From contig JAYUVP010000009.1 of the NCBI GenBank assembly GCA_043753995.1, positions 1 to 17,349 on the forward strand: a DNA stretch of 17,349 nucleotides, read 5' to 3'. Positions 746 to 17,349 of this stretch are shown piece after piece. The notes beneath the pieces were generated by a model that saw nothing but the letters and a program-made list of their open reading frames with translations, searched no databases and was not told the DNA's origin. The DNA comes from Fibrobacterota bacterium (lineage in GTDB: Bacteria > Fibrobacterota > Fibrobacteria > UBA11236). How positions within the stretch are numbered: the first letter of the stretch is position 1; the number at the start of each line of letters is the position of its first letter. The position numbers were made by a program, and so were the translations under genes.

Positions 746-748
746 GAC

Positions 749-778
749 TTGCCTATCTAAACTAATCATATTAGTTTA
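749..778 (+). promoter_or_regulatory. Sigma-70-type promoter overlapped by a palindromic operator (likely TetR site)
   Basis: TTGCCT (749-754), 17-bp spacer, TAGTTT (772-777). A perfect inverted repeat TAAACTAAT-CAT-ATTAGTTTA (758-778) covers the spacer and -10, directly upstream of the hydrolase-TetR pair. Confidence 0.65.
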
Positions 779-784
779 TTGGCT

Positions 785-2289: not shown

Positions 2290-2394
2290 CGAATAGGTTA
2301 CGGGAGGAGCTCGGCCCCTCCCCGCCTCGGCCTGCCATATTCCTGCCCGCTTCGCTGGGCTTTGCCGGCCTCGTCTTCCTCCCCGGCTATTCCA

Positions 2395-3411
2395 TCAAGT
2401 CGGGATTGATGGATCCCATGTCCGTGACAACTGGAATTTTGCCACCTTGCTTTTCAAGGTCGGCAGGGGAATGCCGAGGAGGTGGGCGGCTTTGGCCTTG
2501 TTGAAATTGCATCGGGCCAAGGATTCTTTTAGGACGCGCTCCTCGATTTGGTCGAGGTATTGGTGGAGGGAAGATGTTCCCCAATCGAAAATCTGGAGAC
2601 CGGCCTCCCCATTCACGATATTTAGCGGTAGAGACGAGCGGTCGATTTTCCCGTCCCGGCCCAAAAGGACCAAGCGTTCCACAACATGCTCCAGCTCGCG
2701 CACATTGCCTTCCCAGCGATGACGCATCAGAATGCTTAGTATCTCAGCGGGGAGGTCTAGGTCCCGATTGGGCGAATACTTCTTTAGGAAATGTTCCACC
2801 AGCAAGGGGATATCTTCCGACCTTTCTCGCAGCGGTGGAATTTGGATTTGCAAGACTTTGAGGCGGGAATACAAGTCCTGGCGAAAGGTTCCGCCGTGAA
2901 CCGATTTTGCCAAATCTTTTTTGGTAGCGGCCAGAATGCGAACATCGGCTTGCAAAGAATCATGGCCTCCCAGTCTTTCGAATTTTCCGGTCTGCGCGAA
3001 ATGGAGTAGCTTGACCTGGGTGTCGGGTGGAATATCCGCGATTTCATCCAGGAAAAGGGTCCCTTTATGCGCCAATTCGAGGCGACCCTTTCGCTGCCGT
3101 AGAGACCCAATGCAGGGGATTTTCTCTTGCCCGAACAATTCCGATTCCAGATGATTTCGTGACAAAGAGGAACAGCATACCATGACGAAGGGGTGATTGT
3201 TTCGGCGGCTTTGGTAGTGTATGGCTTCGGCCAATAGGCTTTTTCCCGTGCCCGTCTCGCCTTGGATTAGCACCGTGGATTCCGCCGCGGCCACAATGGC
3301 GGCCAAATCGAAAGTGGCGCATAGGGCAGGCGAACGTGCGAGCAGGTTGCCGAAGGTCCGCGTGGTCATCTCGGAATTCCCTGCCTCCCCGCATGCGTCA
3401 AACAATTCCAC
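2395..3411 (-). CDS. NtrC/Fis-family AAA+ enhancer-binding-type regulator with no sensor domain and a degenerate GAFTGA loop
   Basis: Walker A GETGTGKS, ESELFG, Walker B TLFLDEI, FRQDLYSRL, sensor II GNVRELEH and C-terminal Fis HTH NKAKAAHLLGIPLPTL. The GAFTGA position reads IPCIGS. It starts 9 bp after the NrfD stop (GTG 3411, alternative ATG 3369). Confidence 0.88.
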   Translation of the reverse strand: MELFDACGEAGNSEMTTRTFGNLLARSPALCATFDLAAIVAAAESTVLIQGETGTGKSLLAEAIHYQSRRNNHPFVMVCCSSLSRNHLESELFGQEKIPCIGSLRQRKGRLELAHKGTLFLDEIADIPPDTQVKLLHFAQTGKFERLGGHDSLQADVRILAATKKDLAKSVHGGTFRQDLYSRLKVLQIQIPPLRERSEDIPLLVEHFLKKYSPNRDLDLPAEILSILMRHRWEGNVRELEHVVERLVLLGRDGKIDRSSLPLNIVNGEAGLQIFDWGTSSLHQYLDQIEERVLKESLARCNFNKAKAAHLLGIPLPTLKSKVAKFQLSRTWDPSIPT

Positions 3412-3420
3412 AGCTTCCCA

Positions 3421-4959: not shown

Positions 4960-4965
4960 GGCGCC

Positions 4966-5823
4966 TTACCTTCCCTGGCTTTCAAGCCCGATGTGTTTTT
5001 GCTTGCCCAGGAAAAAGACCTTGGGCTTGGTGCCCATATGTTCTAGCAGGCGTTCGGCCCTTGGGCTATTGGCTAGGCGTGAGACCAGGCTTTCCGGATC
5101 ATTCAAATCACCGAATATAATGGCTTCAGCAGGACAGGATTGCGCGCAGGCCGGCAAAAGACGCACGTCCTCGTCGGTGATTTTGCGATCCTCGGCCTTT
5201 GCCGTCTCCTTCAAGGCCCGGATGCGATGCACGCAGAAGGTGCACTTCTCCACCACGCCCTCGGGGCGAGTGGCGACATCGGGATTCAAAGCCTGCTGAT
5301 GCGATTCGGGGAAGTGAGGTTCGGTCCAGTTGAAATAGCGCCGGGAATAGGGGCAGGCGTTCTGGCAATAGCGACAACCGATACAGCGATCCCAAATCTG
5401 ATCGACAATGCCTTCCTCGTTTTGAAAGGTCGCATTCACCGGGCATACCTTGACGCAGGGAGGGTTTTCGCAATGCATGCAGGGCATGGGCGAAACCGAG
5501 TTGTCTTTGCCTTCGCCCAGATTGAGGAGGGTCATCCAATTGATTTCTGTGCCGGCTGTAACGGGATTATCCCCGCAGAAGGGGACATTGTTTTCCACCT
5601 TGCAGGCCACCACGCAGGCTCCGCAGCCGGAGCATAAATCGAGATCGATGGCCATGCCCCACTTGGGCTTTTTCCCGGTCTTGGCATTGATCTCGGAACC
5701 GTGTTCGTCCTTTTTGGTTTCCGTTCCGGAAGCTGTCTTGGCTAAGCCCGACAAAGGAAGAGCAGCCATGAATTTGAGGAAGGTGCCGCGATCCATTCCG
5801 CCGAATAACGATTCCATTTTCAT
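4966..5823 (-). CDS. 4Fe-4S dicluster electron-transfer subunit (NrfC/PsrB/QrcC-like)
   Basis: WGMAIDLDLCSGCGACVVAC, CMHCENPPCVKVC, CIGCRYCQNAC and KCTFC...PACAQSC give 16 Cys for four clusters. Also GVVEKC, FGDLND and GTKPKVFF. ATGA overlap with the upstream gene. Confidence 0.93.
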   Translation of the reverse strand: MKMESLFGGMDRGTFLKFMAALPLSGLAKTASGTETKKDEHGSEINAKTGKKPKWGMAIDLDLCSGCGACVVACKVENNVPFCGDNPVTAGTEINWMTLLNLGEGKDNSVSPMPCMHCENPPCVKVCPVNATFQNEEGIVDQIWDRCIGCRYCQNACPYSRRYFNWTEPHFPESHQQALNPDVATRPEGVVEKCTFCVHRIRALKETAKAEDRKITDEDVRLLPACAQSCPAEAIIFGDLNDPESLVSRLANSPRAERLLEHMGTKPKVFFLGKQKHIGLESQGR

Positions 5824-8216
5824 GCCTTCAGAATGCGGATACGAGTGCCGCAGCTTGGGGTGAGGCCGCTGAGCGGATCAATATGCGGAGGGACGAGCTC
5901 CTTGGGATTGGACCTCTTGCCACGGGCAAACCTCCCGAATTCCTTGTGGCCACCGCCCAGTTCCATCACAGCCATATCCACGGGCACAGCTTCGGTGACC
6001 AGGGCATGCGACTCGATGCGGCCAATGGGGGATTCCAGCCAAATCTTTTCGCCGTGGACGACGCCGATTTTCCGTGCGGTTTCGGGATTCAGATCTACCC
6101 AGGAAAGCCAGCTTTCATGCGCGCGCAATCCACGCTGCAAGCCCGCCATCTCCCGCAAGTGGGGAATATTGGCCCCGCTGCCTTCGGCATAGGTGATGGG
6201 CTTATAAGTCATGAATAAAATGGGGAACTCCTCGCGCGATCCTGCGAAAACCGCAGCTTCCGCATGAGGAAGGCATACGGCAGCCAAGCTTGGTTTACCG
6301 ATATTTTTGAGCCACTGCTCCGGCGCATGATTTAAATTCCGCGCTAAGGTCGTGATTTTTTCCTCAGCGATTTTTGAGTGGAATTCGAATTTCCCCGAGG
6401 GCGTTTTAAAAGCGGCTTTCCAGTTTTCCGCTGCCATGGGTTCATCGTGCCAATAACCCACCTTGGCTAATTTCTTGAGAAAATCTTCTGGTGATTCTTC
6501 GGATAATGTGCCGCGTTGAACACTTGCGACGCCGGCCAATCTCTCCTCCATGGCCACCTTGAAACTTTTCCAGGGAAAGGCCTCGGCCACCGTGCCGTCA
6601 AGTCCCTTAGCGATTTGAATCAAGGCATCACCGGTATTCTTGGTCTCATACAAAGGCTCGACTACCGGTCGACGCATGCCGATGGCGGCCTGAAAACCGA
6701 AAGGCGGGGGAGTGGCATCTTCCCAGCGTTCCAAATAGGTGTGATCGGGAAGGATCAAATCGGCATAGGCGGCGCTTTCATCCAGGAAAGGAGAGAAGCT
6801 GACGATGAAAGGGATTTTTTCAAAAGCCTTGCGATAACGATCGGGATTATTCCGCGAGAATAGAGGATTGGAGTAATACAAAAGCAAGGCTTCAGCCCCA
6901 TAGGGTTTGCCTTCCATCACACTTTCAGGAAAAGCCTCCACGACATTGTGGCCTAAGGGGAACCGTTCTTTATCCCGGCCATCCAGGGAGGGCTGCGCCA
7001 ATCCTTTTTTCGCGATGTCATCCAGGGTGGCAGCATCCCAATCCGCCAGGGGTATAGGTTTTTTCAATACGATACCGCCGGGACGCTCAATCGAGCCCAG
7101 CAAAGCATTCAGGGCCAAGGCGCAACGGGCGATTTCCAGGCCATTGGAAGTGGACGTGGATCGAGAATCCACCACCACTACCGCGGGCTTGGAAGCAGCC
7201 AATTCCCAGGCGAGCCGATAAATATTCTTCTCGGAGATCCCGGTTATTTCCGAGACTTTTTCCACGGGATAATCCGATAAAGAAGCCGCAAAGCTATCGA
7301 AGCCGGAGCATTGCGAGGCCACGAAGTCGAGATCATGCAAGTTGGCTTTGATCAATTGATGAGCAATGCCCAAGGCGAGCGCATCATAGGTGCCGGGCTT
7401 GATGGCAATCCATTCGTCGGCGATTTTGGCGGATTGAGAACGGTAGGGTTCCACCTGCACGATTTTCGATCGGCGGGTCGGGTTTCCGCTACGGAATTTT
7501 CCCGTCGAGCGGGCGAAGTGTATGCCATTGCAGGTGGATTCGAAAATCCCTGATCCCAGGCTAAGGATATAGGACGTTTTGTCGGCGTCATATCCTTGCA
7601 TTTCCGCCACGCCGGTCATCAATTCCATGGCCTGCACGAGGGCACCATCGCCGGAGGACAAGGGATCAAAGAAATTGGGAGTGCCAAAGGATTGGGAGAA
7701 GCGTTCCAGCAACTCCTTCATGAAACCGCGTTGGCGGCCGCAGAGGATGGCCAGCTTGTGCGGCTCTGATTTTTCGCGCAGCGCGCTCAACTTGGAGGAC
7801 GTCTCCGCGATGGCTTCTTTCCAGGTTATTGGCTTCCATTTTCCCGAACCACGCTCGCCGTCGCGTTTGAGTGGGGTTTTAATGCGATCAGGATCATAGA
7901 GTGTATAGAGTCCGGTTTGTCCTTTAGGGCCGAGTTTGCCGCCTACCAACAAAGAATCCGGATTGCCATTGATCTTGACTGCGCGCCCTTCCACGACACG
8001 CACGCGAATGCCGCAGTTCACGGGACATTGGCCACAGGCCGTCGAAAGCGTTTTTTCTTCGCCGCGATACCAACCGTCCGAACCCGGTACGACAGGCTTT
8101 TCCACGGCAAGGCTATAGGGGTCATGTTGCGGTAGGCAGGCCGCCAGGGCGCTGGCTGCGCCCACGGCTCCCGTGGTCTTAAGGAATTTTCGGCGTGAAA
8201 ACTCAGGCTTCTTCAC
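5820..8216 (-). CDS. Molybdopterin oxidoreductase (DMSO reductase family) fold subunit, Tat lipoprotein, QrcB/ActB-like and probably non-catalytic
   Basis: Tat signal SRRKFLK plus lipobox LAAC. N-terminal CGQCPVNCG, then YDPDRIKTPLKR, ADEWIAIKPGTYDALALG, ADLILPDHTYLERW, TPSGKFEF and the dinucleotide-binding domain WVDLNPETARKIG. GTG start with a GAGGG RBS. Confidence 0.9.
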   Translation of the reverse strand: MKKPEFSRRKFLKTTGAVGAASALAACLPQHDPYSLAVEKPVVPGSDGWYRGEEKTLSTACGQCPVNCGIRVRVVEGRAVKINGNPDSLLVGGKLGPKGQTGLYTLYDPDRIKTPLKRDGERGSGKWKPITWKEAIAETSSKLSALREKSEPHKLAILCGRQRGFMKELLERFSQSFGTPNFFDPLSSGDGALVQAMELMTGVAEMQGYDADKTSYILSLGSGIFESTCNGIHFARSTGKFRSGNPTRRSKIVQVEPYRSQSAKIADEWIAIKPGTYDALALGIAHQLIKANLHDLDFVASQCSGFDSFAASLSDYPVEKVSEITGISEKNIYRLAWELAASKPAVVVVDSRSTSTSNGLEIARCALALNALLGSIERPGGIVLKKPIPLADWDAATLDDIAKKGLAQPSLDGRDKERFPLGHNVVEAFPESVMEGKPYGAEALLLYYSNPLFSRNNPDRYRKAFEKIPFIVSFSPFLDESAAYADLILPDHTYLERWEDATPPPFGFQAAIGMRRPVVEPLYETKNTGDALIQIAKGLDGTVAEAFPWKSFKVAMEERLAGVASVQRGTLSEESPEDFLKKLAKVGYWHDEPMAAENWKAAFKTPSGKFEFHSKIAEEKITTLARNLNHAPEQWLKNIGKPSLAAVCLPHAEAAVFAGSREEFPILFMTYKPITYAEGSGANIPHLREMAGLQRGLRAHESWLSWVDLNPETARKIGVVHGEKIWLESPIGRIESHALVTEAVPVDMAVMELGGGHKEFGRFARGKRSNPKELVPPHIDPLSGLTPSCGTRIRILKA

Positions 8217-8226
8217 GGATTATCCC

Positions 8227-8802
8227 TCATTTGTGACAGGCAGTACATTCATTGTCGGCATTTTTTTGTTCATGGCATTCCATGCACTTGCGCATGGTTA
8301 GGTGTTGGACGTCGGGTTCCACCACGGTACCCGAAACCTTGCGCATGTCCAGATGGCAATCCCAGCATTTCATTTCCCCGAAAGCGACATGAGCACGGTG
8401 GGAGAAATACACGTGGCCGGGGAGCTTGTTAACCGTGACCCAAGGAATTTCCTTTTCACTCTCCAAGTATTCTCGCACCTTGGGTTCGTCCGGGTGTTTG
8501 CCTTGAGCTTCGGAATGGCAATCCGCGCAATCCTTCAGCTTGGGCAAGGTGGCATAAACTCCCTTCTTGGCGAACTTATGGCAGTCCAGGCAATCCATGT
8601 CTTCGGCCTTGATATGAGCCTCATGGTCAAATACCATCGGCTGCTGTCCTCCGCGAACGCGGAGGTGCAGGGCATTCTTTTTCCAGGTGGCGAGGCTATC
8701 GGGTCCTAGGGCCGGGTCTACGGCCTTTTGGCATCGGATTGCGGCCAAGCAAATCCCAAGGCAGGCCAATCCAAGGAAGAAAAGGGACTTCTTTGCCGAC
8801 AT
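8227..8802 (-). CDS. Membrane-anchored pentaheme cytochrome c (QrcA/ActA-like)
   Basis: Five CXXCH motifs (CLDCH, CADCH, CWDCH, CMECH, CTACH). QP..FDHxxH, IPW..V..LP.HVYFSH..H and LTM..C are typical of ActA/QrcA. Hydrophobic N-terminal anchor. Confidence 0.9.
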   Translation of the reverse strand: MSAKKSLFFLGLACLGICLAAIRCQKAVDPALGPDSLATWKKNALHLRVRGGQQPMVFDHEAHIKAEDMDCLDCHKFAKKGVYATLPKLKDCADCHSEAQGKHPDEPKVREYLESEKEIPWVTVNKLPGHVYFSHRAHVAFGEMKCWDCHLDMRKVSGTVVEPDVQHLTMRKCMECHEQKNADNECTACHK

Positions 8803-8815
8803 CCTTGTGCCTTAC

Positions 8816-9217
8816 CTACTTCGCCTTTTTCTTCGGCACATCGAATTTCAAAGTCGCCAGCCATTCCGCCAGGGTCTTCAATTCTTCATCGGTGCCCTTA
8901 TACTTCTTCTTATGCTTACGACCCTTGATTTGTTCCTCTTTCTTTTCCCATTTCACAATCCATTCCGCCGTTCTTTCCTTGCCGACGCCAGACAAGTCGG
9001 GTGGGTCGACCTTTTCCTCGTCTGCTTCTTCCGCTTCTTCCTCATCCGATTCCACTTTGGCGATTTTCAATGCCTCTATAGGGTGACATTGTGAACATTT
9101 TTGCTTGATATAGATTTTCTGGCCGGCAGGTTCCTCGGCCGCAACGGCGGCTTTGAACGAGAACAGGGTCAGCAGGAACACACTCATTGAGAGCATGGTT
9201 GATAGGAACCTCCACAT
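8816..9217 (-). CDS. Periplasmic monoheme class I-like cytochrome c
   Basis: ATG 9217 is preceded by AAGGAG. Signal peptide MWRFLSTML...AAVAA, then G.KIY...CSQCH, PPDLSGVG and a C-terminal helix EELKTLAEWL. The longer ORF start at 9358 lies in the promoter region. Confidence 0.85.
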   Translation of the reverse strand: MWRFLSTMLSMSVFLLTLFSFKAAVAAEEPAGQKIYIKQKCSQCHPIEALKIAKVESDEEEAEEADEEKVDPPDLSGVGKERTAEWIVKWEKKEEQIKGRKHKKKYKGTDEELKTLAEWLATLKFDVPKKKAK

Positions 9218-9298
9218 AGTGCTTCTCCTTACTTCATGAAGTTTGTCGGACTTTCTCAATCCTCTAACGAGGAATGGGAAGTCGTGATTATTAATCAC

Positions 9299-9316
9299 AA
9301 GCGAATAACGATCCAA
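9299..9316 (-). promoter_or_regulatory. Putative sigma-54 (-24/-12) promoter for the leftward Qrc-like operon
   Basis: Minus strand reads TTGGATCGTTATTCGCTT, which is GG-N10-GC and a partial match to TGGCACG-N4-TTGCW. It lies about 85 bp upstream of ATG 9217. Confidence 0.5.
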
Positions 9317-9418
9317 TAGAAAATGGATTGGAAATGCCGCATTCAGCATCGAATACAAGGCCGGCGTTTACCAAATGGCAAAATCGATTCTGGGCTTCGC
9401 CTTTTTGGCATTTATCTC

Positions 9419-9488
9419 GGGGTTGAATTTCACTGAGTGAAAATGAGAGAGATGAATTTCCCTCGTTCCTGGGATGAAAATTCATCCC
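9419..9488. promoter_or_regulatory. Cluster of palindromic/repeated sites, putative upstream activator sequence shared by the divergent promoters
   Basis: GGGATGAAAATTCATCCC (9471-9488, near-perfect palindrome), related copies GAGATGAATTTCCCTC (9449-9464) and GGTTGAATTTCACT (9421-9434), and TTTCACT-G-AGTGAAA (9428-9442). All lie 100-185 bp from both -24/-12 elements. Confidence 0.55.
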
Positions 9489-9600
9489 AACTTGTCGGAA
9501 AGTCTGAGCGGAGTTCGATAATTCGCGCAGATGAAGCCATTGCAGGCTAACGCATTTTAATGTGATTTTTTTCCGAGACCAAAAAACATCAGTAAGCTCA

Positions 9601-9617
9601 TTGGCATATCAATTGCA
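9601..9617 (+). promoter_or_regulatory. Sigma-54 (-24/-12) promoter for the porin-cytochrome operon
   Basis: TTGGCATATCAATTGCA has GG at 9603-9604 and GC at 9615-9616 with exactly 10 nt between, close to consensus. GGAGG (9637-9641) and ATG 9647 follow. Confidence 0.85.
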
Positions 9618-9646
9618 CTGTTCCTTCAATATGACCGGAGGTGGTC

Positions 9647-10954
9647 ATGAAAGAAACCGGAACGGTGCCCCTTATGTTGACCTCCACAAAGACTGGAATT
9701 CGCCGCCCTCCAATCGGAGCAAGCGGCGCAACAGGGCGGGTTCCATCCGCCCGGCGGGTGCATGGAAGTTTATTCCTGCCTGCCACACTTTTAATCGTCA
9801 CGGTGTCCTTTGCGGATTATGTCCGCAGCACGGTGTCGCTTGGCGGGTACTTCTTGGAAAGCCAGGATGCCCCGCAGGACGGGGATTTTTATCAGATGGA
9901 GCGACTCAACCTTGGCATGGGGAAAGGCCCGGTCGAGGCGAAAATCGTTTATGGATATTCCGATTTTTATAACAAGCGCCCCAATACCTATGCACAGGCA
10001 AATCGCCTATCGCTTGCCACTCTGGCATACACGACACCGGTGGAGGGATTAAAGGTCAAAGTGGGTCGCGATTTCGCCCCCATGGTGGATCGCTCTCTGT
10101 ATTTCGACGGAGGATCCGCGGCCTATGAATACGGAGGATGGGTTAAAGGTGAGCTCTTCGGCGGTTATGGCATTCCTTCCGTTTATCAGGATGACATTTT
10201 GGATATGAATAGCGAAACCGGAGTGGTGGGTGGCAAGTTGTCCTATACACAATTGCCCTATCTCGGTATTTATCTCGACGGGCTGGTTAATGGTTATGCC
10301 GATGACGGGTCCCTGGGCTCCAGGGTCCAGGGATATGTCAGCGAGAATATCACTCTCACGGGCAGTGGGGTTTTTCAACTCGATTCTTCCGTGATTTCCT
10401 TTGCCGAGGCTTCGGCCCTCATATCGGTTCGTGATCATGATCTCCTTCAATTCCGTTACGGATTGGAAAACGACCAAATCGATTCCACTCGCAGCTATGC
10501 CTATTTCTTCAATCCCGAACATCAATTTCTTTCAGCCGGTTATACCCTGTATATCAACAAGGACTTGATGGCCAGCCTCGATTATGGAATGGCCTTCTAC
10601 GAAGAGGAAGCCGCCTTTCTGATGGACTTTCAGGTGAATGCCTATGGGTTTTTCTTGGGTGCCGGCAAGGAATGGGCCACCCTCCCCGAAGCCTTGAACT
10701 TGAAGGCCGGCTATGGCACCCATCTACCGCACAACCTCCGGTTGGAATTGGGAGGGGGTTATACGCTCTATGATTTGAATCGCACCGAGCTGGATTTGAC
10801 GGCTCTGAATGCCTGGGTGCGCCCGGCCTATGCGATTGGCAAAGGGTTTGAAGTTTCCGCTGCCTACGAGTTCATACAAAACCGCATGTACAAGCAAGAT
10901 CACCGCTACTTCATCTGCATCAAACACGTCTTTTTCAAAGGTCTGTCCAAATGA
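9647..10954 (+). CDS. Putative outer-membrane beta-barrel (porin of a porin-cytochrome complex)
   Basis: 435 aa, no heme motifs. A hydrophobic signal segment ends ..VTVSFA. The mature part is rich in Gly/Tyr/Phe alternating amphipathic strands (LKVKVGR, FDGGSAAYEY, LSAGYTLY, LKAGYGTH, FEVSAAYEF, YFICIKHVF). Translationally coupled (ATGA) to the multiheme cytochrome gene. Confidence 0.7.
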   Translation: MKETGTVPLMLTSTKTGIRRPPIGASGATGRVPSARRVHGSLFLPATLLIVTVSFADYVRSTVSLGGYFLESQDAPQDGDFYQMERLNLGMGKGPVEAKIVYGYSDFYNKRPNTYAQANRLSLATLAYTTPVEGLKVKVGRDFAPMVDRSLYFDGGSAAYEYGGWVKGELFGGYGIPSVYQDDILDMNSETGVVGGKLSYTQLPYLGIYLDGLVNGYADDGSLGSRVQGYVSENITLTGSGVFQLDSSVISFAEASALISVRDHDLLQFRYGLENDQIDSTRSYAYFFNPEHQFLSAGYTLYINKDLMASLDYGMAFYEEEAAFLMDFQVNAYGFFLGAGKEWATLPEALNLKAGYGTHLPHNLRLELGGGYTLYDLNRTELDLTALNAWVRPAYAIGKGFEVSAAYEFIQNRMYKQDHRYFICIKHVFFKGLSK

Positions 10955-11697
10955 CCAAAGGATTGCTGACACTGTTGCTCTTTGGTGTGGGTTGGGGAGC
11001 GGGAAATACCGAGTTCTCCCATAGCCAGCACGGGAAAAAAGAAGAATTGGAATGTACGGATTGCCATAGCAAGACCATGAATTCCAGGGGCCTTGAGGAT
11101 GTGGTGCCGGTTCCTGATAAGACTTGCACCAAATGCCATGCAGACGATACGGGTTTCACTTTGGTAAGACCCTTGGTGATCACCGACCTCAGTTATAAAA
11201 TCCGGGATCGGGCGGAAAAGGGTTCTTTGAAATTCTCACACAAGGCCCATGGTAAAAAAGCGAGTATGGAATGCGCCCAATGCCATGGCGAGGAGTTGGC
11301 CAAAGGGGTGCCCCTGCCTGCCTTAAAGGGTCCAGATCCCATGGCCATGAAGAGTTGCATGGAATGCCATGTGAAAAAGGCCGAGATTTCCTGCCTGACT
11401 TGCCATGATAAGGTGGAAAAGCCCTTGAATCACCTTAGCGTCGCTTGGATGCGCAGCGAGGGCCATGGCCTGGCATCCAATCTGAAGGGCAAAGATTGCG
11501 AAATGTGCCATGAACAAACCGGGGATTGCGCGGAATGCCATATGGGTACGGATGCCCGCAAGGTTCACGGACTCAATTACCGGTTCAATCACGGCACCGA
11601 TGTCAGGTTCGGTAAATCGGATTGCTCAGTATGTCATCAGCCCCTCGACCAGTTCTGTGCGGACTGCCACGAGGGTGCGGGAGGGCCCGCGAGGTGA
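10951..11697 (+). CDS. Periplasmic nonaheme cytochrome c (c3/c7-type repeats)
   Basis: Signal peptide and nine CXXCH motifs (CTDCH, CTKCH, CAQCH, CMECH, CLTCH, CEMCH, CAECH, CSVCH, CADCH) in 248 aa. Two FSHxxH distal-His motifs. Confidence 0.92.
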   Translation: MTKGLLTLLLFGVGWGAGNTEFSHSQHGKKEELECTDCHSKTMNSRGLEDVVPVPDKTCTKCHADDTGFTLVRPLVITDLSYKIRDRAEKGSLKFSHKAHGKKASMECAQCHGEELAKGVPLPALKGPDPMAMKSCMECHVKKAEISCLTCHDKVEKPLNHLSVAWMRSEGHGLASNLKGKDCEMCHEQTGDCAECHMGTDARKVHGLNYRFNHGTDVRFGKSDCSVCHQPLDQFCADCHEGAGGPAR

Positions 11698-11705
11698 AAA
11701 CGTCC

Positions 11706-12461
11706 ATGCGAAAAACCATCGCGAAATTACTTCCGGCGGCAATGCTGCTCCTCACGGGATGCAGCGAAATAGACCACCCCGATGTGGGCCAGGAAAGTTG
11801 CGACTTGTGCCATAATGCTTCCCTGGCCAATCAAGCGGTGCATCGTTTGCATCTCAGCAATCTGGCCATGGCGGATTTCCCCTACAATGGCCTGACGCCG
11901 CCCGCACGCTATCCCGTCGTCAGTGGAAATGGCGATACCACCTACGAGTTCAAGGTGGATCCTGCTTTTAAATTCAGCAATAGCGCCACTATCGATAAGG
12001 CAAAGCGCACCCAACAAAACCGGCTACTGAATACAGGCGTTCGGTGCGTGGATTGCCATCAAGGTTTGGATTCGCTTTTCGCACGCAATAAGGATTCCAA
12101 CCACGGCAATGGCAAGTCGGATGCCTCCTTCGACGAGGTGGGCTTGCAGGCCCGATATTATAAGGCCTCCGACACGGCCCATTTTTCACGGTCGGCTCCG
12201 GGGAAGATGTCCTTCGACGGTGAGGGTTGCAGCAATATCGCCTGTCACGGCGCTGGTCGAAAAGGTGTTGTGGATGTCGTCTGGAATTCGTCCCCGAAGT
12301 TGACCGATACGCTCTCGTGCATGCAATGCCATGACACCAGGAAGCATAAGGTAGGGGTGGCCTGTGACAAGTGCCACTTCGACGTGACTTTAGACAACGG
12401 AAAGACCATTCACAATTTCCGCAAGCATTCCAATGACACCATTAATTACGGCAGGTTTTGA
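11706..12461 (+). CDS. Multiheme cytochrome c lipoprotein with CxxxxCH/CxxCH domain (5 hemes)
   Basis: MRKTIAKLLPAAMLLLTGC lipobox. CDLCH, CVDCH, CMQCH and CDKCH plus CSNIACH. The H.NG..D..F...CSN..CHG...W...C..CH pattern matches the Geobacter-type CxxxxCH...CXXCH repeat. GTG 11694 is an alternative start. Confidence 0.85.
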   Translation: MRKTIAKLLPAAMLLLTGCSEIDHPDVGQESCDLCHNASLANQAVHRLHLSNLAMADFPYNGLTPPARYPVVSGNGDTTYEFKVDPAFKFSNSATIDKAKRTQQNRLLNTGVRCVDCHQGLDSLFARNKDSNHGNGKSDASFDEVGLQARYYKASDTAHFSRSAPGKMSFDGEGCSNIACHGAGRKGVVDVVWNSSPKLTDTLSCMQCHDTRKHKVGVACDKCHFDVTLDNGKTIHNFRKHSNDTINYGRF

Positions 12462-12497
12462 ATGAGCACAGGATCTTTTTTCGGAGGAGGGCGGACA

Positions 12498-13868
12498 ATG
12501 AAAAAGTTATGGATAATTGCCCTGGTAGCAATCGGCGCCTTGGCTTTTTTGTCGGGATGCTTGGCTAAAGACGGGATTCAAGGCCCTCCCGGCCAGGACG
12601 GAACGGATGGTACCAAAGGCAGCGATGCCATTGCCTCCTGTATGAAATGCCATTCCGATTCCAATTTTACCGCGAAGAATGTGCAATACCGATTTTCCAA
12701 GCATTTCAAAGGCACGACCAGCGCGCGCAATTCGAAGTATTGCGTCCGTTGCCATACCGATGAAGGCTTTCAGGAAGTCGCATGGGATGATCAGCCATGG
12801 GGTCGGGCGGAAATACCCACCTCCACTAGAATTGCCTGTCAAACATGTCACAAAATGACGGGCTTTGACTTTCCGAACCCGGAAGACACTATTAATAGCA
12901 TCTTAAGGACGTCAGAACCGGTGATTCTGAACTATCTCAATCAAGCCACCTTATCCGGTTGGACGACTAAAAAGACGGCGGATTTAGCTCAGGGAAAATC
13001 CAAGGTCAATAACCTTTGTGGTTCCTGCCATCAAATCCGTGGCGCCACATCCTATGAATACACCGATACCGCGGCAGGCAAATTGGTCACCAAGCCTTTC
13101 GCTCAAATGGCTTATTTCCCGTTGGGTACGGCCATTCTCCCCGGCGATACAGCTACCGAAGCCAAGGGAAATTTGAAGAAACCCACCGATTCGGTGGCCT
13201 ACTTGGTGGGAAGAAGTTTCAGCGTGCATGACGGCAATCAGATGAATCTTTTCAAAGGAACCTACGCCTATGATTTCGGCACACCCATCACCACGGCCAA
13301 GCGGGAACATGCCAAGGATGATTGCACCGTTTGCCATATGAATGAATGGGATGCGAAAACGAATACGGGCGGTCACTCCATGATCATGAATGAGGAAGAA
13401 GCCGCATGCGTTGCCTGTCATAACCTGAAGGACACCGTGGCCTTGACTCAGAAAAATATCAGCGAATTGCTGGTGAAGCTGGGCGATGCACTCACCGCCA
13501 GGAAGGTGATGAAGAAAACCACTAATGCCACTTCGGGAGCTGTGTCCTATAGTATTCTGAACACCCATGATTTCTATGGCAAGCTTTATTCCAATAACCC
13601 TGCGGATTCCGCGGTCACTTATGCCGCGCTGACCACCTCCAACAAGGTGGATACCGCCACTGGCAATGTCACCTATGTTAATCGTGTCACCTATGCGAAA
13701 GATGCCGATTTGAAGAATCGTATCGGTCGTAAATGGACTTATGGTGAGTTGGGTGCCGCCTACAATTACGGTTATATCAACTCGGAATTGTCCAAGGGCG
13801 TCCATAACGATGAGTTTGCAAGAAAGTTATTGCAAGCCTCTATCGATTGGCTCGCGGCTCACCCTTAA
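12498..13868 (+). CDS. Hexaheme cytochrome c lipoprotein with collagen-like linker and OmcB/NrfA-fold-like C-terminal helices, likely surface-exposed
   Basis: GGAGGAGG RBS (12483-12490), lipobox LSGC and G-X-Y repeats. Heme motifs CMKCH, CVRCH(TDEGF), CQTCH, CGSCH(QIR), CTVCH(M) and CVACH. C-terminal GAAYNY...GVHN..FA.KLL..SIDWL. Confidence 0.88.
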   Translation: MKKLWIIALVAIGALAFLSGCLAKDGIQGPPGQDGTDGTKGSDAIASCMKCHSDSNFTAKNVQYRFSKHFKGTTSARNSKYCVRCHTDEGFQEVAWDDQPWGRAEIPTSTRIACQTCHKMTGFDFPNPEDTINSILRTSEPVILNYLNQATLSGWTTKKTADLAQGKSKVNNLCGSCHQIRGATSYEYTDTAAGKLVTKPFAQMAYFPLGTAILPGDTATEAKGNLKKPTDSVAYLVGRSFSVHDGNQMNLFKGTYAYDFGTPITTAKREHAKDDCTVCHMNEWDAKTNTGGHSMIMNEEEAACVACHNLKDTVALTQKNISELLVKLGDALTARKVMKKTTNATSGAVSYSILNTHDFYGKLYSNNPADSAVTYAALTTSNKVDTATGNVTYVNRVTYAKDADLKNRIGRKWTYGELGAAYNYGYINSELSKGVHNDEFARKLLQASIDWLAAHP

Positions 13869-13928
13869 GATGAGCTCCTAGCTCAGGGGCTAGGCCCCAG
13901 GGTTTTTTAGCAAATCAGGAATTCAAAA

Positions 13929-13966
13929 GGCCTCAGCCAAACCTCGGCTGGGGCCGTTTTTGTTTT
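13929..13966 (+). terminator. Rho-independent terminator
   Basis: Stem GGCCTCAGCC / GGCTGGGGCC (one G-U pair), 7-nt loop, followed by GTTTTTGTTTT, 60 bp after the hexaheme stop. Two smaller hairpins lie upstream (13871-13885, and 13886-13898 followed by T6). Confidence 0.8.
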
Positions 13967-14010
13967 GGATGTACTCGTTTGATCTTGCGGTGGAGGGGCC
14001 TCGATTAGGA

Positions 14011-14026
14011 AGGCCCGGAGTTTGCT
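14011..14026 (+). promoter_or_regulatory. Putative sigma-54 (-24/-12) promoter for the cytochrome c maturation operon
   Basis: AGGCCCGGAGTTTGCT has GG at 14012-14013, 10 nt, then GC at 14024-14025 within TTGCT. It lies between the terminator and ATG 14124. Confidence 0.6.
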
Positions 14027-14123
14027 TGCTTAGATAAACATGCTTGAAACCCATCGTTTCAAACCTTTCGCTTGCCATATCGGCAAGAGGCTGTCAGACT
14101 GTCACGTTTGAACGGAGTCGATA

Positions 14124-14831
14124 ATGCCCAAATCCATCGCAGCAAAACCATTGAGAATCCGGAATGTCATCCGGCTTCGGATATTTCTGGCATTATGCTT
14201 GATGCTGGCATGCGTGCTGATTTTCAGTTGCCGTGACAAGTCGGAAAAATCAAGCTATTCGGAAATCAAAGGCTTTGATACGCCTTTAAAGCGGCAAGAA
14301 ATCAAGCTCCCCGCCCAAACCGAAAGCGATCCTCATGCGGGAATGCAAATGCCCGCAGGCGAAGATCCCCATGCAGGTATCGAGGTTTCAAGTCCAGCCG
14401 GGAATTTGACCTGGCAACTTCCAGCCGGGTGGGCCGCATTTCCAGGCACGGGCATGTTTTATGCCATCCTTAAGGCCGGCACCAGTGAAAATGCGCTGGA
14501 AGTCTCCATCGTCGCCATGGCGGGTGATGCCGGCGGATTGGATGCCAACGTGGAAAGATGGTTAGGACAAATCGCCTTGAAACCATCCCCATCCGACCGC
14601 GCTGCTTTCATTGCCCAGGCGGAGTCCTTTCGCACTCAAGGCGGGTTGAATCTCTCCCTCCTTGATTTCAATTCTCAGGTCAAGGATGGCGAAGCACCAA
14701 GCATGTTGGTGGGCGTGGTCAAGCCGGCGGAATTCTCCTTCTTTATTAAGGTGAAAGGGAAAAAGTCTGATTTGGAAAAAGCGAAAAAGGAGGTCATGGT
14801 CTTTTGCCAATCCCTGGGATGGAAGGCCTGA
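14124..14831 (+). CDS. Uncharacterised lipoprotein with DPHAG repeats, associated with cytochrome c biogenesis
   Basis: GGAG RBS and a hydrophobic signal ending IFSC. DPHAGMQMPAGEDPHAG, then LTWQLPAGW...GGLDANVERWLGQI...FFIKVKG. TGATG overlap with resB. Confidence 0.7.
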   Translation: MPKSIAAKPLRIRNVIRLRIFLALCLMLACVLIFSCRDKSEKSSYSEIKGFDTPLKRQEIKLPAQTESDPHAGMQMPAGEDPHAGIEVSSPAGNLTWQLPAGWAAFPGTGMFYAILKAGTSENALEVSIVAMAGDAGGLDANVERWLGQIALKPSPSDRAAFIAQAESFRTQGGLNLSLLDFNSQVKDGEAPSMLVGVVKPAEFSFFIKVKGKKSDLEKAKKEVMVFCQSLGWKA

Positions 14832-15976
14832 TGAATTTCCAGCCGCGGACGTTTGCGAAAAAGGTTTTGCCTAACCTGGCTTCGCTTAAAATCACCGTCG
14901 TCTGTCTGATATTGCTTTTGGTGCTGACGGCATGGGGCACGATTTACCAGGCCAGCTACGGACTCTACGCGGCACAGACACGGTTTTTCCATTCATGGTA
15001 TTTCCTAGTGGGCGCTTTCTTTCCCTTTCCAGGGGCCCAATTGGTGATGTGGGTTTTGTTCGTGAATTTGTTGGCCTCGATGATTTTTCGTGTGAAATAC
15101 AGCATCACCAATGCTGGCAATATTCTCACCCATGGCGGATTGCTTTTTCTATTGGCTGGATCCTTCGTCACCTACCGGTACGCAACTGAATCTTATCTCC
15201 CACTTCAAGAAGGGGAAGTAGCGAATGTTTCCTTGGATAGGCGAACTTGGGAATTGGCGGTTTGGATAGAACCCGTAGAAGGGCTGGAGAAAAAGGTTAC
15301 GGCCTTGGAAATTGGGGCTGACCAACTGGGTGCCGAATTGGATTTCCGGGAATTCGGATTCATTGCCCGATTGGACAAATACTATAAGAATAGCGATGCC
15401 GCTCCTGGGCCCGCGGAAATGGGATGGATAGAAAACTCCGAAGGGATAGGCTCCTTGATTTCTCGTAAGCCTTACTCGGATCCGGAGGATGATTTCCCCG
15501 GGGCCATGCTCACCATTCTCGGGGCCTCTGGACCCGACCGAAATACCTTACTCTATGGTGGGCAGGAAAATCCGAACACCTTTTCCGTGGCGGGTAAAAC
15601 CGTACAAATCCTCTTGCGACGTAAGCGTCACCCTCTGCCGCTTGCACTCAAGCTCATTGATGTCCGCCGGGAAGACTATTCGGGAACGGGCATTGCGCGG
15701 AGCTATGAAAGCGATGTCGATATCCAGGGAGCCGGTCTGGAAAGGCGGACGCGCATCTACATGAATCATCCCTTGCGTCATGGCGACTATACCTTTTTTC
15801 AATCTTCGTATTCGAAGGGGAGGAATGGAAAGGAAACTTCGGTATTCGCCGTGGTGGAAAACGGGGGTCGATGGATTCCATACGTCTCCAGCCTGGTGAT
15901 TTTCTCCGGCATGGTTCTGCATTTTGTGATCATGATGTTCGGAACCAGAAATAGGACCCGATGGGAGGCCGCATGA
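14831..15976 (+). CDS. resB: Cytochrome c biogenesis protein ResB/CcsB (System II)
   Basis: LASLKITVVCL..L.VL..WGT..Q, three N-terminal TMs with the conserved His (LTHGGLL), a large periplasmic domain, IYMNHPLRHGDYTFFQSSY and a C-terminal TM. Confidence 0.88.
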   Translation: MNFQPRTFAKKVLPNLASLKITVVCLILLLVLTAWGTIYQASYGLYAAQTRFFHSWYFLVGAFFPFPGAQLVMWVLFVNLLASMIFRVKYSITNAGNILTHGGLLFLLAGSFVTYRYATESYLPLQEGEVANVSLDRRTWELAVWIEPVEGLEKKVTALEIGADQLGAELDFREFGFIARLDKYYKNSDAAPGPAEMGWIENSEGIGSLISRKPYSDPEDDFPGAMLTILGASGPDRNTLLYGGQENPNTFSVAGKTVQILLRRKRHPLPLALKLIDVRREDYSGTGIARSYESDVDIQGAGLERRTRIYMNHPLRHGDYTFFQSSYSKGRNGKETSVFAVVENGGRWIPYVSSLVIFSGMVLHFVIMMFGTRNRTRWEAA

Positions 15977-17349
15977 AGTTTCCAGTTGTATTGCTGTTCC
16001 TGTCCGCCTTGGCCACGGGCACGTCCGCGAAGGAAAAGAGCCCCGTTCCCCTGGATGATTTCGGGAACCTCGCGGTATTGGATGGCGGCCGCATTAAGCC
16101 ACTCGATTCCTATGCTCGCCATTCCCTATTGCAATTAAGCGCCCGTAATACCTATCGGGGCGAGCCGGCCATAAGCTGGTTAGCGCGGGTGATGTTCGCT
16201 CCGAAAACGGCCACTGAAGACGATGTTTTCCGAATCAATAATGAGGAAGTCGCCTATGCCCTGGGCATTGAGCCCGAAAAAGATCAGCGTTACAGTTTCG
16301 CCCAGCTGTCGCCGAATATCAATAAGCTATCCGAATTAGCGGAAGAGGCGATGAAGGTAGATGAGAAGAAGCGAACTCCCATGGAGTCCGAATGCATACG
16401 CGTTGCGAATAATCTCAGTCTTTATCTCGGGGTGATGAATGCCTTTCTATTCGCCCAACCACATCCTGATTTTCGTATTTCCGATACCGCTGTGGCAGCC
16501 CTGCTCGGTATGCAAGTGCGAGAAGACGATCCTTATCGCTTTCTCGACATTCGCGCGAGTTTGCAGAGGGTAGCCGATACGCTTGCAAAATTGAACGTTG
16601 AGCCTGCGGCCCATGAAGGTCACGAGGGCCATGAACACGAAGGCAAAACGGAAAATCGGACCGACACGGAGCTGAGGTTATTAAGTCTTTCCCATCGCCT
16701 CGAAAATTGGTCAAGCCATTATGCGAGTTTTCCCGTTGAAATTATTCCACCCGCGGCGGGTGCAAAGAATTGGAAAAGCGCCTGGGGCCTTGCAGCGATG
16801 AAAAACCCGGACGCTGGGGCAGAAGAAGCCATCACGGCGATGGGAGAAATGGTTGCGGCTTATGGAAAAGGTGACGGGCCAAAATTTTCTCAGGCACTGG
16901 AAAAATTGCATGCCTTCGTGGATGAAAAAAGCGGGAAGGCAATCAGTCGTAGTAAGGTCAATTTGGAACTCACCTACAATCAGTTGAATCCCTTTTACTG
17001 GGCGAAAATCTTTTACGGGTTTTCTGGGTTGGCCGCCTTGCTGGGATTGATTTTCCTGGGCAAATGGTTGCGGCCCATGGCCACCACCTTATTGAGCTTG
17101 GGAATACTCGCCCAAGCCGTGGGGTTGGGTTTGCGCTTAGCCGTTACCGGACGCGCGCCGGTCACCAATATGTTCGAAACCTTTGTCTTCGTAGCCTGGG
17201 TGGGGGCCATCTTGGGGCTAATTCTGGAATTCTATAATCGCAAGGGCTATGGCTCCCTGGTGGGGGCGTTGACGGGATTTTCCATACTTCTCATTTCCAT
17301 CAAATACAGCGCCGACGGCGACACCATCGGTGTTCTCGTGGCGGTATTG
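15973..17349 (+). CDS. ccsA: Cytochrome c biogenesis protein CcsA/ResC (System II heme lyase), partial at the window end
   Basis: Missing from the ORF track because it has no stop in the window. ATG 15973 overlaps the resB stop and the frame stays open for 459 codons: MKFPVVLLF...LDGGRIKPLDSYAR...LELTYNQLNPF...LRLAVTGRAPVTNMFETFVFVAW...GDTIGVLVAVL. The WWD domain is expected beyond the window. Confidence 0.9.
   Translation, partial: MKFPVVLLFLSALATGTSAKEKSPVPLDDFGNLAVLDGGRIKPLDSYARHSLLQLSARNTYRGEPAISWLARVMFAPKTATEDDVFRINNEEVAYALGIEPEKDQRYSFAQLSPNINKLSELAEEAMKVDEKKRTPMESECIRVANNLSLYLGVMNAFLFAQPHPDFRISDTAVAALLGMQVREDDPYRFLDIRASLQRVADTLAKLNVEPAAHEGHEGHEHEGKTENRTDTELRLLSLSHRLENWSSHYASFPVEIIPPAAGAKNWKSAWGLAAMKNPDAGAEEAITAMGEMVAAYGKGDGPKFSQALEKLHAFVDEKSGKAISRSKVNLELTYNQLNPFYWAKIFYGFSGLAALLGLIFLGKWLRPMATTLLSLGILAQAVGLGLRLAVTGRAPVTNMFETFVFVAWVGAILGLILEFYNRKGYGSLVGALTGFSILLISIKYSADGDTIGVLVAVL

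Follow-up and report, generated by a model that had tools for sequence, protein, structure and literature searches.

A candidate porin-cytochrome conduit joined to a Qrc/ACIII-like NrfD complex in a member of the Fibrobacterota

The Fibrobacterota are regarded as bacteria that break down cellulose and chitin by fermentation or, at most, aerobically. Contig JAYUVP010000009.1 of one Fibrobacterota genome (assembly GCA_043753995.1) is 17,349 nucleotides (nt) long and was analysed over its whole length, which we call the window. Its sequence supports the presence of a porin-cytochrome conduit with a new family of outer-membrane barrel, tied physically and phyletically to an uncharacterised Qrc/ACIII/Psr-like NrfD complex (ACIII, alternative complex III) and to haem-attachment genes of its own. 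In the known conduits the link to quinone is a cytochrome-based one (CymA, ImcH, CbcL or CbcBA). With a link of the NrfD type, energy could be conserved at the inner membrane, as is described for Qrc (PMC6303296, PMC13059093; papers given by PMC number are cited here for excerpts of their text), and this would change the energy yield that is expected of mineral respiration. If the locus works as we propose below, polymer degradation by Fibrobacterota in sediments would be tied to the cycling of iron, manganese or humic substances, or to interspecies electron transfer. Among the papers listed by full-text searches, none linked Fibrobacterota or Fibrobacteres to multihaem cytochromes or to extracellular electron transfer, though clusters of this kind may be found in the supplementary tables of PMC10732223 and PMC10553843.

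Co-inheritance of the inner module and the conduit

The window is organised in three operons, each preceded by a sigma-54-type promoter site (Table 1). A first-pass annotation of the same DNA had proposed that the NrfD complex encoded on the minus strand is the inner-membrane partner of the porin-multihaem conduit encoded on the plus strand, and this pairing is borne out by synteny, phyletic nesting, recurring promoter sites and a complex prediction. All 13 genes, from the activator to CcsA, occur in the same divergent layout in two other genomes of the same family (G015 and G012), in which the two divergent operons are co-conserved as the annotation would have them. They are adjacent but rearranged in G010, where 12 of the 13 genes are found, no activator lies within 20 kb, and the Qrc-like operon is collinear with the barrel operon and directly upstream of it. 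A further genome, G276, has the barrel on a separate contig, and its maturation operon stands divergently to the Qrc-like one. Across three different gene arrangements, the modules stay adjacent.

The distribution of the genes among 296 Fibrobacterota genomes is nested. A profile of the barrel (E<=1e-10) matched 14 genomes: six of the 32 in the home family (the window's genome included), three of six in family f2, both of the two in f8, two of seven in f17 and the single genome of f21, with no match among the 151 genomes of f5 or the 46 of f13, the largest families. The NrfD ortholog (E<=1e-60, 55-72% identity) was found in six of the 296, all of them within the 14 that hold the barrel, and in the home family six of 32 genomes have both genes and the other 26 have neither. 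Most home-family genomes also give weaker NrfD matches (24-28% identity), which represent the ACIII paralog. These counts are a pattern and not a statistical test, since the genomes are related and incomplete genomes can hide genes; the tallies include G021, a genome flagged as unpublished, which gave no match.

The promoter sites recur as well. The first-pass annotation had noted GG-N10-GC elements before the operons, and this holds for three conserved sigma-54-like sites, but not for the loose pattern, since TGG-N10-GC is not enriched in the window (48 sites versus 51.5 expected) and only the three specific sites count. These three fit the fuller sigma-54 consensus and recur at matching places in relatives. 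The site before the barrel gene has the near-consensus form TGGCAT-N5-TTGCA and lies 30 nt upstream of the gene, with equivalents before the barrel gene in G010, G012 and G027. The site of the maturation operon, aGGCCCGGAGTTTGCT, has a near-identical counterpart in the corresponding position of G012, and G010 has a TGGCTCGACATTTGCA site. The site of the monohaem operon, TGGATCGTTATTCGCT, is weaker, with TCGC as its -12 element; the homologous site before the monohaem gene in G010 reads TGGATCGATATTTGCT. Good sigma-54 sites precede all three operons in G010, two in G012 and the barrel in G027. The genome encodes rpoN, and sigma-70-like sites number four versus 12 expected, with none of them within the intergenic regions.

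The barrel itself belongs to no known family, and shows no Pfam (E<=0.01) or NCBIfam match, PF11854 included. An AlphaFold2 (AF2) model built on 14 homologs has a mean pLDDT of 76.5 and places about 23-24 strands after a disordered N-terminus, so that the predicted barrel comprises about 22-24 strands and about 380 residues, without a plug domain. Structure searches agree with the model, which bears out, at the level of prediction, the barrel assignment made in the first-pass annotation. The top Foldseek matches are the 24-strand ushers PapC and FimD and the 18-strand Occ porins. VIA-align ranks 22-strand TonB-receptor barrels first (FyuA, Z 19.2, root-mean-square deviation 4.2, 336 residues aligned), and also aligns FimD (Z 17.2) and MtrB (6r2q_B, Z 15.2, root-mean-square deviation 4.3, 328 aligned); because the TonB-receptor barrels outscore MtrB, we take the match to MtrB as a sign of shared architecture and not of kinship. 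The family is small. A word-indexed search returned 21 proteins at E<=1e-3, the window's own included, and a profile search of 1.84 billion representatives gave 57 at E<=1e-3, of which 12 lie at E<=1e-30. Names were looked up for ten distant relatives, and the one informative name was that of a 'porin domain' protein from Candidatus Raymondbacteria; none of the ten came from Geobacter or Shewanella, and none had an OmbB/ExtB-type or PCC3/PCC4 name.

The barrel gene and the gene for the 9-haem cytochrome overlap by 4 nt (10951-10954), and the haem motifs of the cytochrome are largely kept in seven homologs. When barrel residues 53-435 and cytochrome residues 20-248 were submitted to complex prediction with separate alignments, the pair scored 0.64 (individual runs 0.64, 0.58 and 0.65), versus 0.00 for the best control. 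Of 157 solved complexes in the tool's calibration, 116 pass its mark, as do two of 215 mismatched pairs. At least 65% of the contacts were shared between runs, with a partner pLDDT of at least 60. The predicted interface joins every-other, lumen-facing residues round the barrel to cytochrome residues 156-238, and so the C-terminal third of the cytochrome is predicted to sit in the barrel lumen. The score may come partly from the model's memory of the solved MtrAB complex, which is built alike, though the barrel has no detectable sequence link to MtrB.

Two lipoprotein cytochromes follow in the same operon. The larger one, with six haem motifs, matches the MtrC/MtrF domain II/IV model PF22113 at 38 bits, above the cut-off of 30. 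The smaller one carries a Geobacter-type CxxxxCH/CxxCH domain, and its CX4CH motif is kept in all four orthologs compared. Directly after the lipid-anchor Cys of the 6-haem protein there is a collagen-like Gly-X-Y run, GIQGPPGQDGTDGTKG (12570-12620, residues ~37-52), and a GPPGPPG run also occurs in the G012 orthologs of this protein. The run is probably a flexible tether. Together, the lipoboxes, the tether and the MtrC/MtrF-like domain are consistent with a location of these cytochromes on the outer face of the cell.

In its operon logic, a barrel followed by a periplasmic multihaem cytochrome and one or more lipoprotein multihaem cytochromes, the plus-strand operon resembles the OmbB-OmaB-OmcB and ExtABCD conduits of Geobacter, with which it also shares the CxxxxCH/CxxCH domain. 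ExtABCD likewise has two lipoprotein cytochromes. The likeness observed lies in gene arrangement and domain, and the inner-membrane partner differs, being an NrfD complex in our locus, whereas the quinone link in Geobacter is ImcH, CbcL or CbcBA (excerpts of PMC11492766). With MtrCAB, MtoAB and PioAB the locus shares a cytochrome inserted in a large barrel and an outer-face multihaem partner (both predicted here), and with MtrCAB in particular a barrel model that aligns to MtrB and a 6-haem lipoprotein that matches the MtrC/MtrF model. However, the barrel of the locus is smaller and lacks PF11854, and its periplasmic cytochrome has nine haems, not ten, in c7-type units. The usual partner of MtrCAB is CymA. 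The general pattern of a porin-cytochrome conduit, a plug-less barrel gene adjoining a gene for a periplasmic multihaem cytochrome, is present. A DmsEFAB-like arrangement, in which a molybdenum (Mo) enzyme is exported via the barrel to the cell surface, was considered separately and rejected, the Mo-fold gene of the window lying in an operon with an NrfD anchor and lacking a lipobox.

The inner-membrane module and the proposed pathway

The closest solved relatives of the NrfD-type subunit are the ActC chains of ACIII (6lod_C at 98.8 bits, with three more ActC chains next), and PsrC was not found among solved structures at E<=0.01. A hydropathy scan predicts about 12 helices, that is, a 10-helix core and two C-terminal helices. 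An Arg of ActC is matched by Arg370 in the alignment with 6lod, and this residue may be the 'gatekeeper' Arg that has been discussed in the family. For the Fe-S subunit, the nearest solved chain is ActB, in its C-terminal domain (213 bits, versus 126 for PsrB), and the subunit's 16 Cys in four complete motifs predict, from sequence only, four [4Fe-4S] clusters. Its third Cys group reads CIGCRYC, where ACIII has C-x-G-T: the solved chains 6f0k_B, 6lod_B, 8k9e_B and 6btm_B and the genome's own ActB all have CIGT or CVGT, with Thr at the second Cys position, a signature of [3Fe-4S] clusters. CIGCRYC was found in 49 of 56 metagenome homologs of the Fe-S subunit, these being the ones with a readable motif. 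The best solved relatives of the pentahaem cytochrome are ActA chains (8k9e_A, 74.6 bits). The NrfD subunit is 26% identical to the genome's own ActC, and the monohaem cytochrome, whose signal peptide begins at Met48 of a longer open reading frame (ORF), has no similarity to the genome's own ActE; it is conserved in G015, G010, G012 and G276. The C-terminal half of the monohaem protein is highly charged (8816-9060), with an acidic run, ESDEEEAEEADEE, and then a lysine-rich stretch; this tail could mediate electrostatic docking.

We favour, with moderate confidence, the reading that the locus is a three-module pathway which links the menaquinone pool to the cell exterior and in which electrons flow outward. 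What the analysis shows is gene content, folds, co-inheritance, promoter sites and a predicted fit of barrel and cytochrome; the steps set out here, together with quinone reactivity, electrogenicity, surface exposure and direction, are what we infer for it. The first module, on the minus strand, would be an NrfD-type inner-membrane quinone:cytochrome c oxidoreductase, with quinone chemistry at the interface of the NrfD and Fe-S subunits on the periplasmic side. Electrons would pass through the four [4Fe-4S] clusters to the membrane-anchored pentahaem cytochrome and from there to the small soluble monohaem cytochrome, the Mo-fold subunit, without a Mo ligand, probably acting as a scaffold. In the second module, the 9-haem cytochrome would plug the barrel and pass electrons to the two outer-face lipoprotein cytochromes. 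The third module would be a dedicated System II set (ResB/CcsA and a lipoprotein), perhaps needed for the many haems and for the CX4CH site. In relatives, all three operons would be under a two-component sigma-54 activator encoded at the end of the first module. Outward flow would carry electrons from menaquinol to an extracellular Fe(III) or Mn(IV) mineral, a humic substance or a partner cell, and could give a facultatively aerobic bacterium that degrades polysaccharides a sink for electrons under anaerobic conditions. Menaquinone genes of the futalosine pathway are present in the genome. As the first-pass annotation held, sequence alone is insufficient to give the direction of electron flow; outward flow is favoured because three subunits are ACIII-like, because barrels of sister lineages have CbcL-type partners, and because the cytochrome domains are of the kind found in metal reducers.

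A number of observations weigh against this pathway, and each is given here together with the alternative on which it bears. Direction is the first of these. The genome also contains a canonical ACIII, on contig C131 (L023:1-12196), with ActA, ActB, ActC, ActD (PF11821), a monohaem cytochrome and, at the ActF position, a 397-residue ORF without a Pfam match; it is followed by SCO1, COX2 with a cytochrome c domain, and COX1 (caa3-type). This cluster means that the genome is equipped for aerobic respiration, and with it electrons could run inward. Surface cytochromes would then take up electrons from Fe(II), from reduced minerals, from a cathode-like surface or from a syntrophic partner, and these would pass from the 9-haem and monohaem cytochromes either on to the caa3 oxidase, which is downhill, or by way of the NrfD complex into menaquinone, in a Qrc-like manner if the donor potential is low enough and otherwise by reverse transport driven by the proton-motive force. 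In G027, a genome of family f2, the barrel operon lies directly beside COX1 and COX3, and the first gene of the minus-strand operon in the window encodes a monohaem cytochrome of the class-I type, which as a rule serves oxidases. Qrc itself runs from cytochrome to menaquinone (excerpts of PMC6303296 and PMC13059093), and one proposal for syntrophic sulfate reducers makes it the acceptor of electrons from a porin-cytochrome conduit (in an excerpt of PMC10553843). Against this stand the NrfD, Fe-S and pentahaem subunits, which are closer to the quinol-oxidising ACIII than to the Qrc models, and the c7-type and CX4CH domains, which are typical of metal reducers. The same G027 cluster (L013, G027:C12 ~2800-11140) pairs the barrel with a CbcL-like protein of 608 residues, made up of a c7-type multihaem part and cytochrome b561, and also contains an NHL-repeat protein and an 869-residue MtrC/MtrF-like cytochrome. 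CbcL is a quinol oxidase of Geobacter for metal reduction. On balance we are doubtful of inward flow, while granting it an appreciable chance.

The Mo-fold subunit bears on a different alternative, in which the minus-strand operon encodes a catalytic molybdoenzyme of the Psr/Phs/Arr/Ttr type, acting as terminal reductase or oxidase for a soluble sulfur, arsenic or selenium compound, and the conduit is a separate system or one with only a loose link to it. By sequence, the subunit does have its best relatives in this group. Its nearest solved structures are ArrA (241 bits) and PsrA (188), ActB reaching no more than 54-59 bits, and among NCBIfam models the subunit scores 363 bits with PhsA, 314 with QrcB, 290 with ArrA and 101 with TtrA. 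All of these scores are below the cut-offs, which for the catalytic families are far off (694 bits for PhsA, 1600 for ArrA and 1750 for TtrA). The subunit has a twin-arginine translocation (Tat) signal, its Fe-S partner has four complete [4Fe-4S] motifs, and the first three Cys of the FS0 site are kept here and conserved in 118 of 119 close relatives, which would allow a redox role for the subunit; the genome's own cofactor-less ActB has none of the FS0 Cys. However, alignment to 2vpw_A and 6cz7_A shows that the Mo-ligand Cys and the fourth FS0 Cys are both missing, with Gly at the latter position. At the position of PsrA's ligand Cys the alignment has Asp or Gly, within a variable stretch; Asp, which might still act as a ligand, is not conserved and occurs there in only 36 of the 119 relatives. 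In 93 of the 119, Gly occupies the fourth FS0 position and the ligand stretch is variable, whereas the remaining 26, which look catalytic, have the full FS0 site and in many cases an HSSIC-type ligand. The subfamily appears to have descended from Psr/Arr-like enzymes and to have lost catalysis, possibly retaining one cluster. Three further points argue against catalysis: the anchor is of the 10-helix class, which excerpts of the Qrc literature link to non-catalytic partners (PMC6303296); the operon includes a pentahaem and a monohaem cytochrome; and it is inherited with porin-cytochrome genes in every genome that has it. We hold a catalytic enzyme to be very improbable. The genome can make molybdopterin and encodes MoaC and three other Mo-enzyme genes, which suits an active enzyme. 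An attempt to show by missing molybdopterin synthesis that the subunit is cofactor-less failed, MoaC being present, and does not discriminate.

The coupling of the inner module to the conduit is looser outside the genomes described above. Eight of the 14 genomes with the barrel lack the NrfD module. Besides G027, in G030 the barrel follows a 1075-residue MtrC-like cytochrome, a histidine kinase and a response-regulator sigma-54 activator, and in G275 (family f8) it lies among genes for 6-, 11-, 9-, 4- and 4-haem proteins with a sigma-54 two-component pair. G030 shows a tandem arrangement (L012, G030:C305 1684-7217), in which the barrel/9-haem pair is followed by a second pair, a 414-residue unnamed ORF and a homolog of the 9-haem cytochrome. 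In Geobacter, omb-oma-omc units are duplicated, to which this tandem pair can be likened. Conversely, two metagenome loci whose NrfD subunits are among the closest relatives outside the Fibrobacterota in a set of 80 (49-53% identity; L028, 2114-8660, and L033, 295-6094) have no porin within 10 kb. Their neighbours are a different, large type-II-like Mo enzyme, its Fe-S subunit and a trihaem c7, with a NarJ-like chaperone in L033, which hints that the module also serves periplasmic oxidoreductases. In view of this loose coupling in other lineages, we read the module as a general coupler, not one specific to extracellular transfer.

Expression is a further weak point. In G012 and G015 the activator is a response regulator of 458-468 residues, and in G012 it is separated from NrfD by a histidine kinase gene. 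The activator of the window, which starts 10 nt after the NrfD stop, lacks the receiver domain, and its GAFTGS loop reads IPCIGS, unlike that of three aligned relatives; the change arises by six point substitutions within 12 nt, without a frameshift, and the rest of the protein shares 72% identity with the full-length ortholog. It is through the GAFTGA loop that such activators touch sigma-54, and so the window's activator is probably unable to activate and may be inert or act as a competitor. No ortholog of the G012 kinase was found in the genome at E<=1e-20, and no RNA run was found that holds the sequence. With the regulator defective and the kinase absent, expression of the locus in this genome is uncertain. 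The first-pass annotation had described the locus as self-contained, which is right as far as its own maturation genes go, but not for its control. It is therefore conceivable that the locus is silent or decaying here, with its two-component control deleted, its activator crippled and its sigma-54 promoters orphaned. Beyond the activator, moreover, the flank differs in G+C content (0.62 versus ~0.52) and holds unrelated genes. Yet the reading frames of all 12 structural genes are intact, their haem, Cys and lipobox motifs are kept, the sigma-54 sites are intact, and the genome carries genes for at least seven other activators of the NtrC type, which could substitute for that of the locus. We regard a silent or decaying locus as improbable, and this reading would in any case leave the identity of the locus unchanged.

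Relation to Qrc, ACIII and metagenome relatives

The first-pass annotation called the inner module Qrc/ACIII-like. The likeness is real, but membership in either fails on the features tested, and we read the module as one that resembles Qrc and ACIII and appears to be a member of neither. With Qrc it shares four separate genes in the order multihaem cytochrome c, Mo-fold, four-cluster Fe-S subunit and NrfD, a large subunit that is Tat-exported and without a Mo ligand, and an NrfD core of the 10-helix class. For three subunits a Qrc model comes first or nearly first among the NCBIfam matches, and JGI labels 63%-identical orthologs 'menaquinone reductase, molybdopterin-binding-like subunit'. However, every equivalog cut-off of the Qrc models (NF041781-NF041784) is missed, with scores of 108 bits against 180 for QrcA, 314 against 440 for QrcB, 271 against 400 for QrcC and 36 against 570 for QrcD. 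The multihaem subunit of Qrc has six haems, and that of the locus has five. QrcB is described as free of redox cofactors (in an excerpt of PMC13059093), whereas the Mo-fold subunit of the locus retains three FS0 Cys; Qrc has a proximal [3Fe-4S] cluster (excerpt of PMC6303296), whereas the Fe-S subunit of the locus has four complete motifs. The two extra NrfD helices, the added monohaem gene and the host, a member of the Fibrobacterota, are further differences, and no tetrahaem c3 partner is found among the genome's six ORFs with three or more CXXCH motifs.

With ACIII the module has in common a pentahaem and a monohaem cytochrome, a Mo-fold without a Mo ligand, an ActA-type pentahaem subunit and an ActC-type 10-helix core. 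In contrast to ACIII, the Mo-fold and Fe-S proteins are separate, where the genome's own ActB is a fusion of 1044 residues; the window has no ActD (PF11821) match and no second NrfD (ActF); and it has CIGCRYC in place of C-x-G-T, FS0 Cys that are kept, and a monohaem cytochrome unrelated to the genome's own ActE. The Psr/Phs/Arr enzymes include the best sequence relatives of the large subunit, share the four complete [4Fe-4S] motifs of the Fe-S subunit, and are approached by the sister subfamily that keeps the catalytic Cys and the full FS0 site. They differ from our module in the Mo-ligand and fourth FS0 Cys, which it has lost, in its 12-helix ActC-like anchor and in its added cytochrome subunits.

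A metagenome scan with an alignment of the Mo-fold subunit gave at least 596 pattern matches, of which at least 440 were confirmed by tblastn, and 80 loci were kept. On the same stretch of DNA as the Mo-fold gene, these 80 have an Fe-S homolog in 56 cases, NrfD in 48, the pentahaem cytochrome in 63 and the monohaem in nine, many of the contigs being short. The barrel family of the window occurs in two of them (L024 and L026), and an ORF with at least eight CXXCH motifs in ten. In L078 (~170-15650), an MtrB/PioB-like porin (PF11854, 29 bits against a cut-off of 23) lies about 4 kb from the Qrc-like genes, with two decahaem cytochromes, a c7 and a dihaem cytochrome c, and with FeoB downstream; this is apparently an independent pairing of the inner-module family with a different family of porin. 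In L025 and L057, 13-haem MtrC-like and 11-haem CX4CH cytochromes stand beside the Qrc-like genes. Of 19 homologous ORFs scanned, from metagenome loci or from the genome itself, none reaches a Qrc cut-off.

From these patterns, the inner module can be read as a general coupler between quinone and periplasmic cytochromes that has been recruited to porin-cytochrome conduits more than once. The wider family, with at least 440 metagenome loci, with scanned members below the curated cut-offs, and with positions beside both conduits and periplasmic Mo enzymes, looks like an unannotated general coupling module. We suggest tentatively, as a possibility to which we would not yet commit ourselves, that it is a third lineage of NrfD-type cytochrome:quinone oxidoreductases, apart from Qrc and ACIII, which is widespread in metagenomes and has repeatedly been recruited as a possibly electrogenic coupling site for porin-cytochrome conduits. 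Its marks may be a degenerate Mo-fold that holds an FS0-type cluster, four [4Fe-4S] clusters, a pentahaem cytochrome and a 12-helix anchor. Sediment Fibrobacterota that degrade fibre would, in that case, use extracellular minerals for respiration or trade electrons with partners.

The idea of such a conduit has partial precedent in proposals that involve Qrc, ACIII or NrfD proteins. In the excerpts available, Oet porin-cytochrome conduits of syntrophic sulfate reducers are proposed to feed periplasmic cytochromes and Qrc (PMC10553843); ACIII is placed in Cyc2-type iron oxidation, and PCC3 and PCC4 are found with dihaem-b inner-membrane proteins (PMC5566968); one metagenome-assembled genome of the Planctomycetota has an NrfD-type cluster that lies downstream of a porin-cytochrome (PCC) cluster (PMC10732223); and ActA, CbcA, CbcL, CymA and ImcH are treated as inner-membrane quinone oxidoreductase cytochromes of the Desulfuromonadia (PMC11492766).

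Gene layout, haem attachment and flanks

The window is the entire contig C9 of a 5.2-Mb genome in 356 contigs with a completeness of 97%. ORF listing, translation and family scans placed every gene of the first-pass annotation at or near the position first given, and they confirmed its count of 26 haem motifs, made up of 25 CXXCH and one CX4CH. Genome-wide, six stop-to-stop ORFs have three or more CXXCH motifs, four of which are inside the locus, the two others being ActA and a protein of 1074 residues. This concentration of haem motifs in the locus is far from chance.

Table 1. Features of the 17,349-nt window, with positions counted from its first letter
Feature	Position	Strand	Evidence
Sigma-54 activator remnant, AAA+ and Fis-type helix-turn-helix only	2395..3411	-	PF00158/PF02954
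NrfD-type integral membrane subunit, 512 residues	3421..4959	-	PF03916, 85 bits
Periplasmic four-cluster Fe-S subunit	4966..5823	-	16 Cys in four complete motifs
Tat-exported molybdopterin-fold (Mo-fold) subunit	5820..8216	-	PF00384/PF01568/PF04879/PF10518
Membrane-anchored pentahaem cytochrome c, QrcA/ActA-like	8227..8802	-	5 CXXCH
Exported class-I-type monohaem cytochrome c, leading gene of the minus-strand operon	8816..9217	-	1 CXXCH, PF00034, 30 bits
Sigma-54 promoter-like site of the monohaem/Qrc-like operon	9300..9315	-	
Sigma-54 promoter-like site before the barrel gene	9602..9617	+	
Outer-membrane beta-barrel, 435 residues, no known family	9647..10954	+	Predicted model, structure searches
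Periplasmic 9-haem cytochrome	10951..11697	+	9 CXXCH, c7-type domains
Lipoprotein cytochrome, 4 CXXCH and one CX4CH	11706..12461	+	Lipobox LTGC, PF09698 23 bits, TIGR01904 24.5 bits
Lipoprotein 6-haem cytochrome	12498..13868	+	Lipobox LSGC, 6 CXXCH, PF22113 38 bits
Intrinsic terminator-like hairpin, 10 pairs (8 GC), then T-run; ends the porin-cytochrome operon	13929..13955	+	
Sigma-54 promoter-like site before the maturation operon	14011..14026	+	
Lipoprotein of unnamed family, 235 residues, DPHAG repeats	14124..14831	+	
ResB/CcsB-type System II biogenesis protein	14831..15976	+	PF05140, 50 bits
CcsA-type haem lyase, N-terminal 463 residues, cut by contig end	15961..17349	+	TIGR03144, 25.6 bits, residues 379-443

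The maturation operon has the composition of a System II set, a ResB-domain protein followed by a CcsA haem lyase. ResB orthologs are 55-59% identical and hold the same position, and CcsA orthologs are 625-650 residues long. The missing C-terminus of CcsA is probably at the end of contig C181, where positions 118-212 of PF01578, the C-terminal part of Cytochrom_C_asm, are found; the ends of C9 and C181 share no exact sequence overlap. Two further CcsA-type genes are present in the genome, and so the ResB/CcsA pair of the locus is an extra, dedicated set. Specialised CcsBA isoenzymes are known in Wolinella, and by analogy it may be speculated that the set of the locus serves the CX4CH site. The lipoprotein of 235 residues, with two DPHAG repeats, is always found upstream of ResB/CcsA in G015, G010, G012 and G276. 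It has no Pfam or NCBIfam match, and the Atlas gave only clusters of unnamed lipoproteins and weak DcrB/PsbP-like leads. A possible role for this protein could be that of a haem- or metal-handling accessory of System II.

The stretch is present in two DNA runs of one sediment study, which may be its source. At the left end of the window (1-2394) there are unrelated genes for a DUF5360 membrane protein, an alpha/beta hydrolase and a TetR regulator, none of which was found in the syntenic loci of G015, G010 and G012. The G+C content of 0.62 mentioned above is that of positions 1001-2000. The junction between this flank and the locus coincides with the shortened regulator, which suggests that a deletion or rearrangement took place here.

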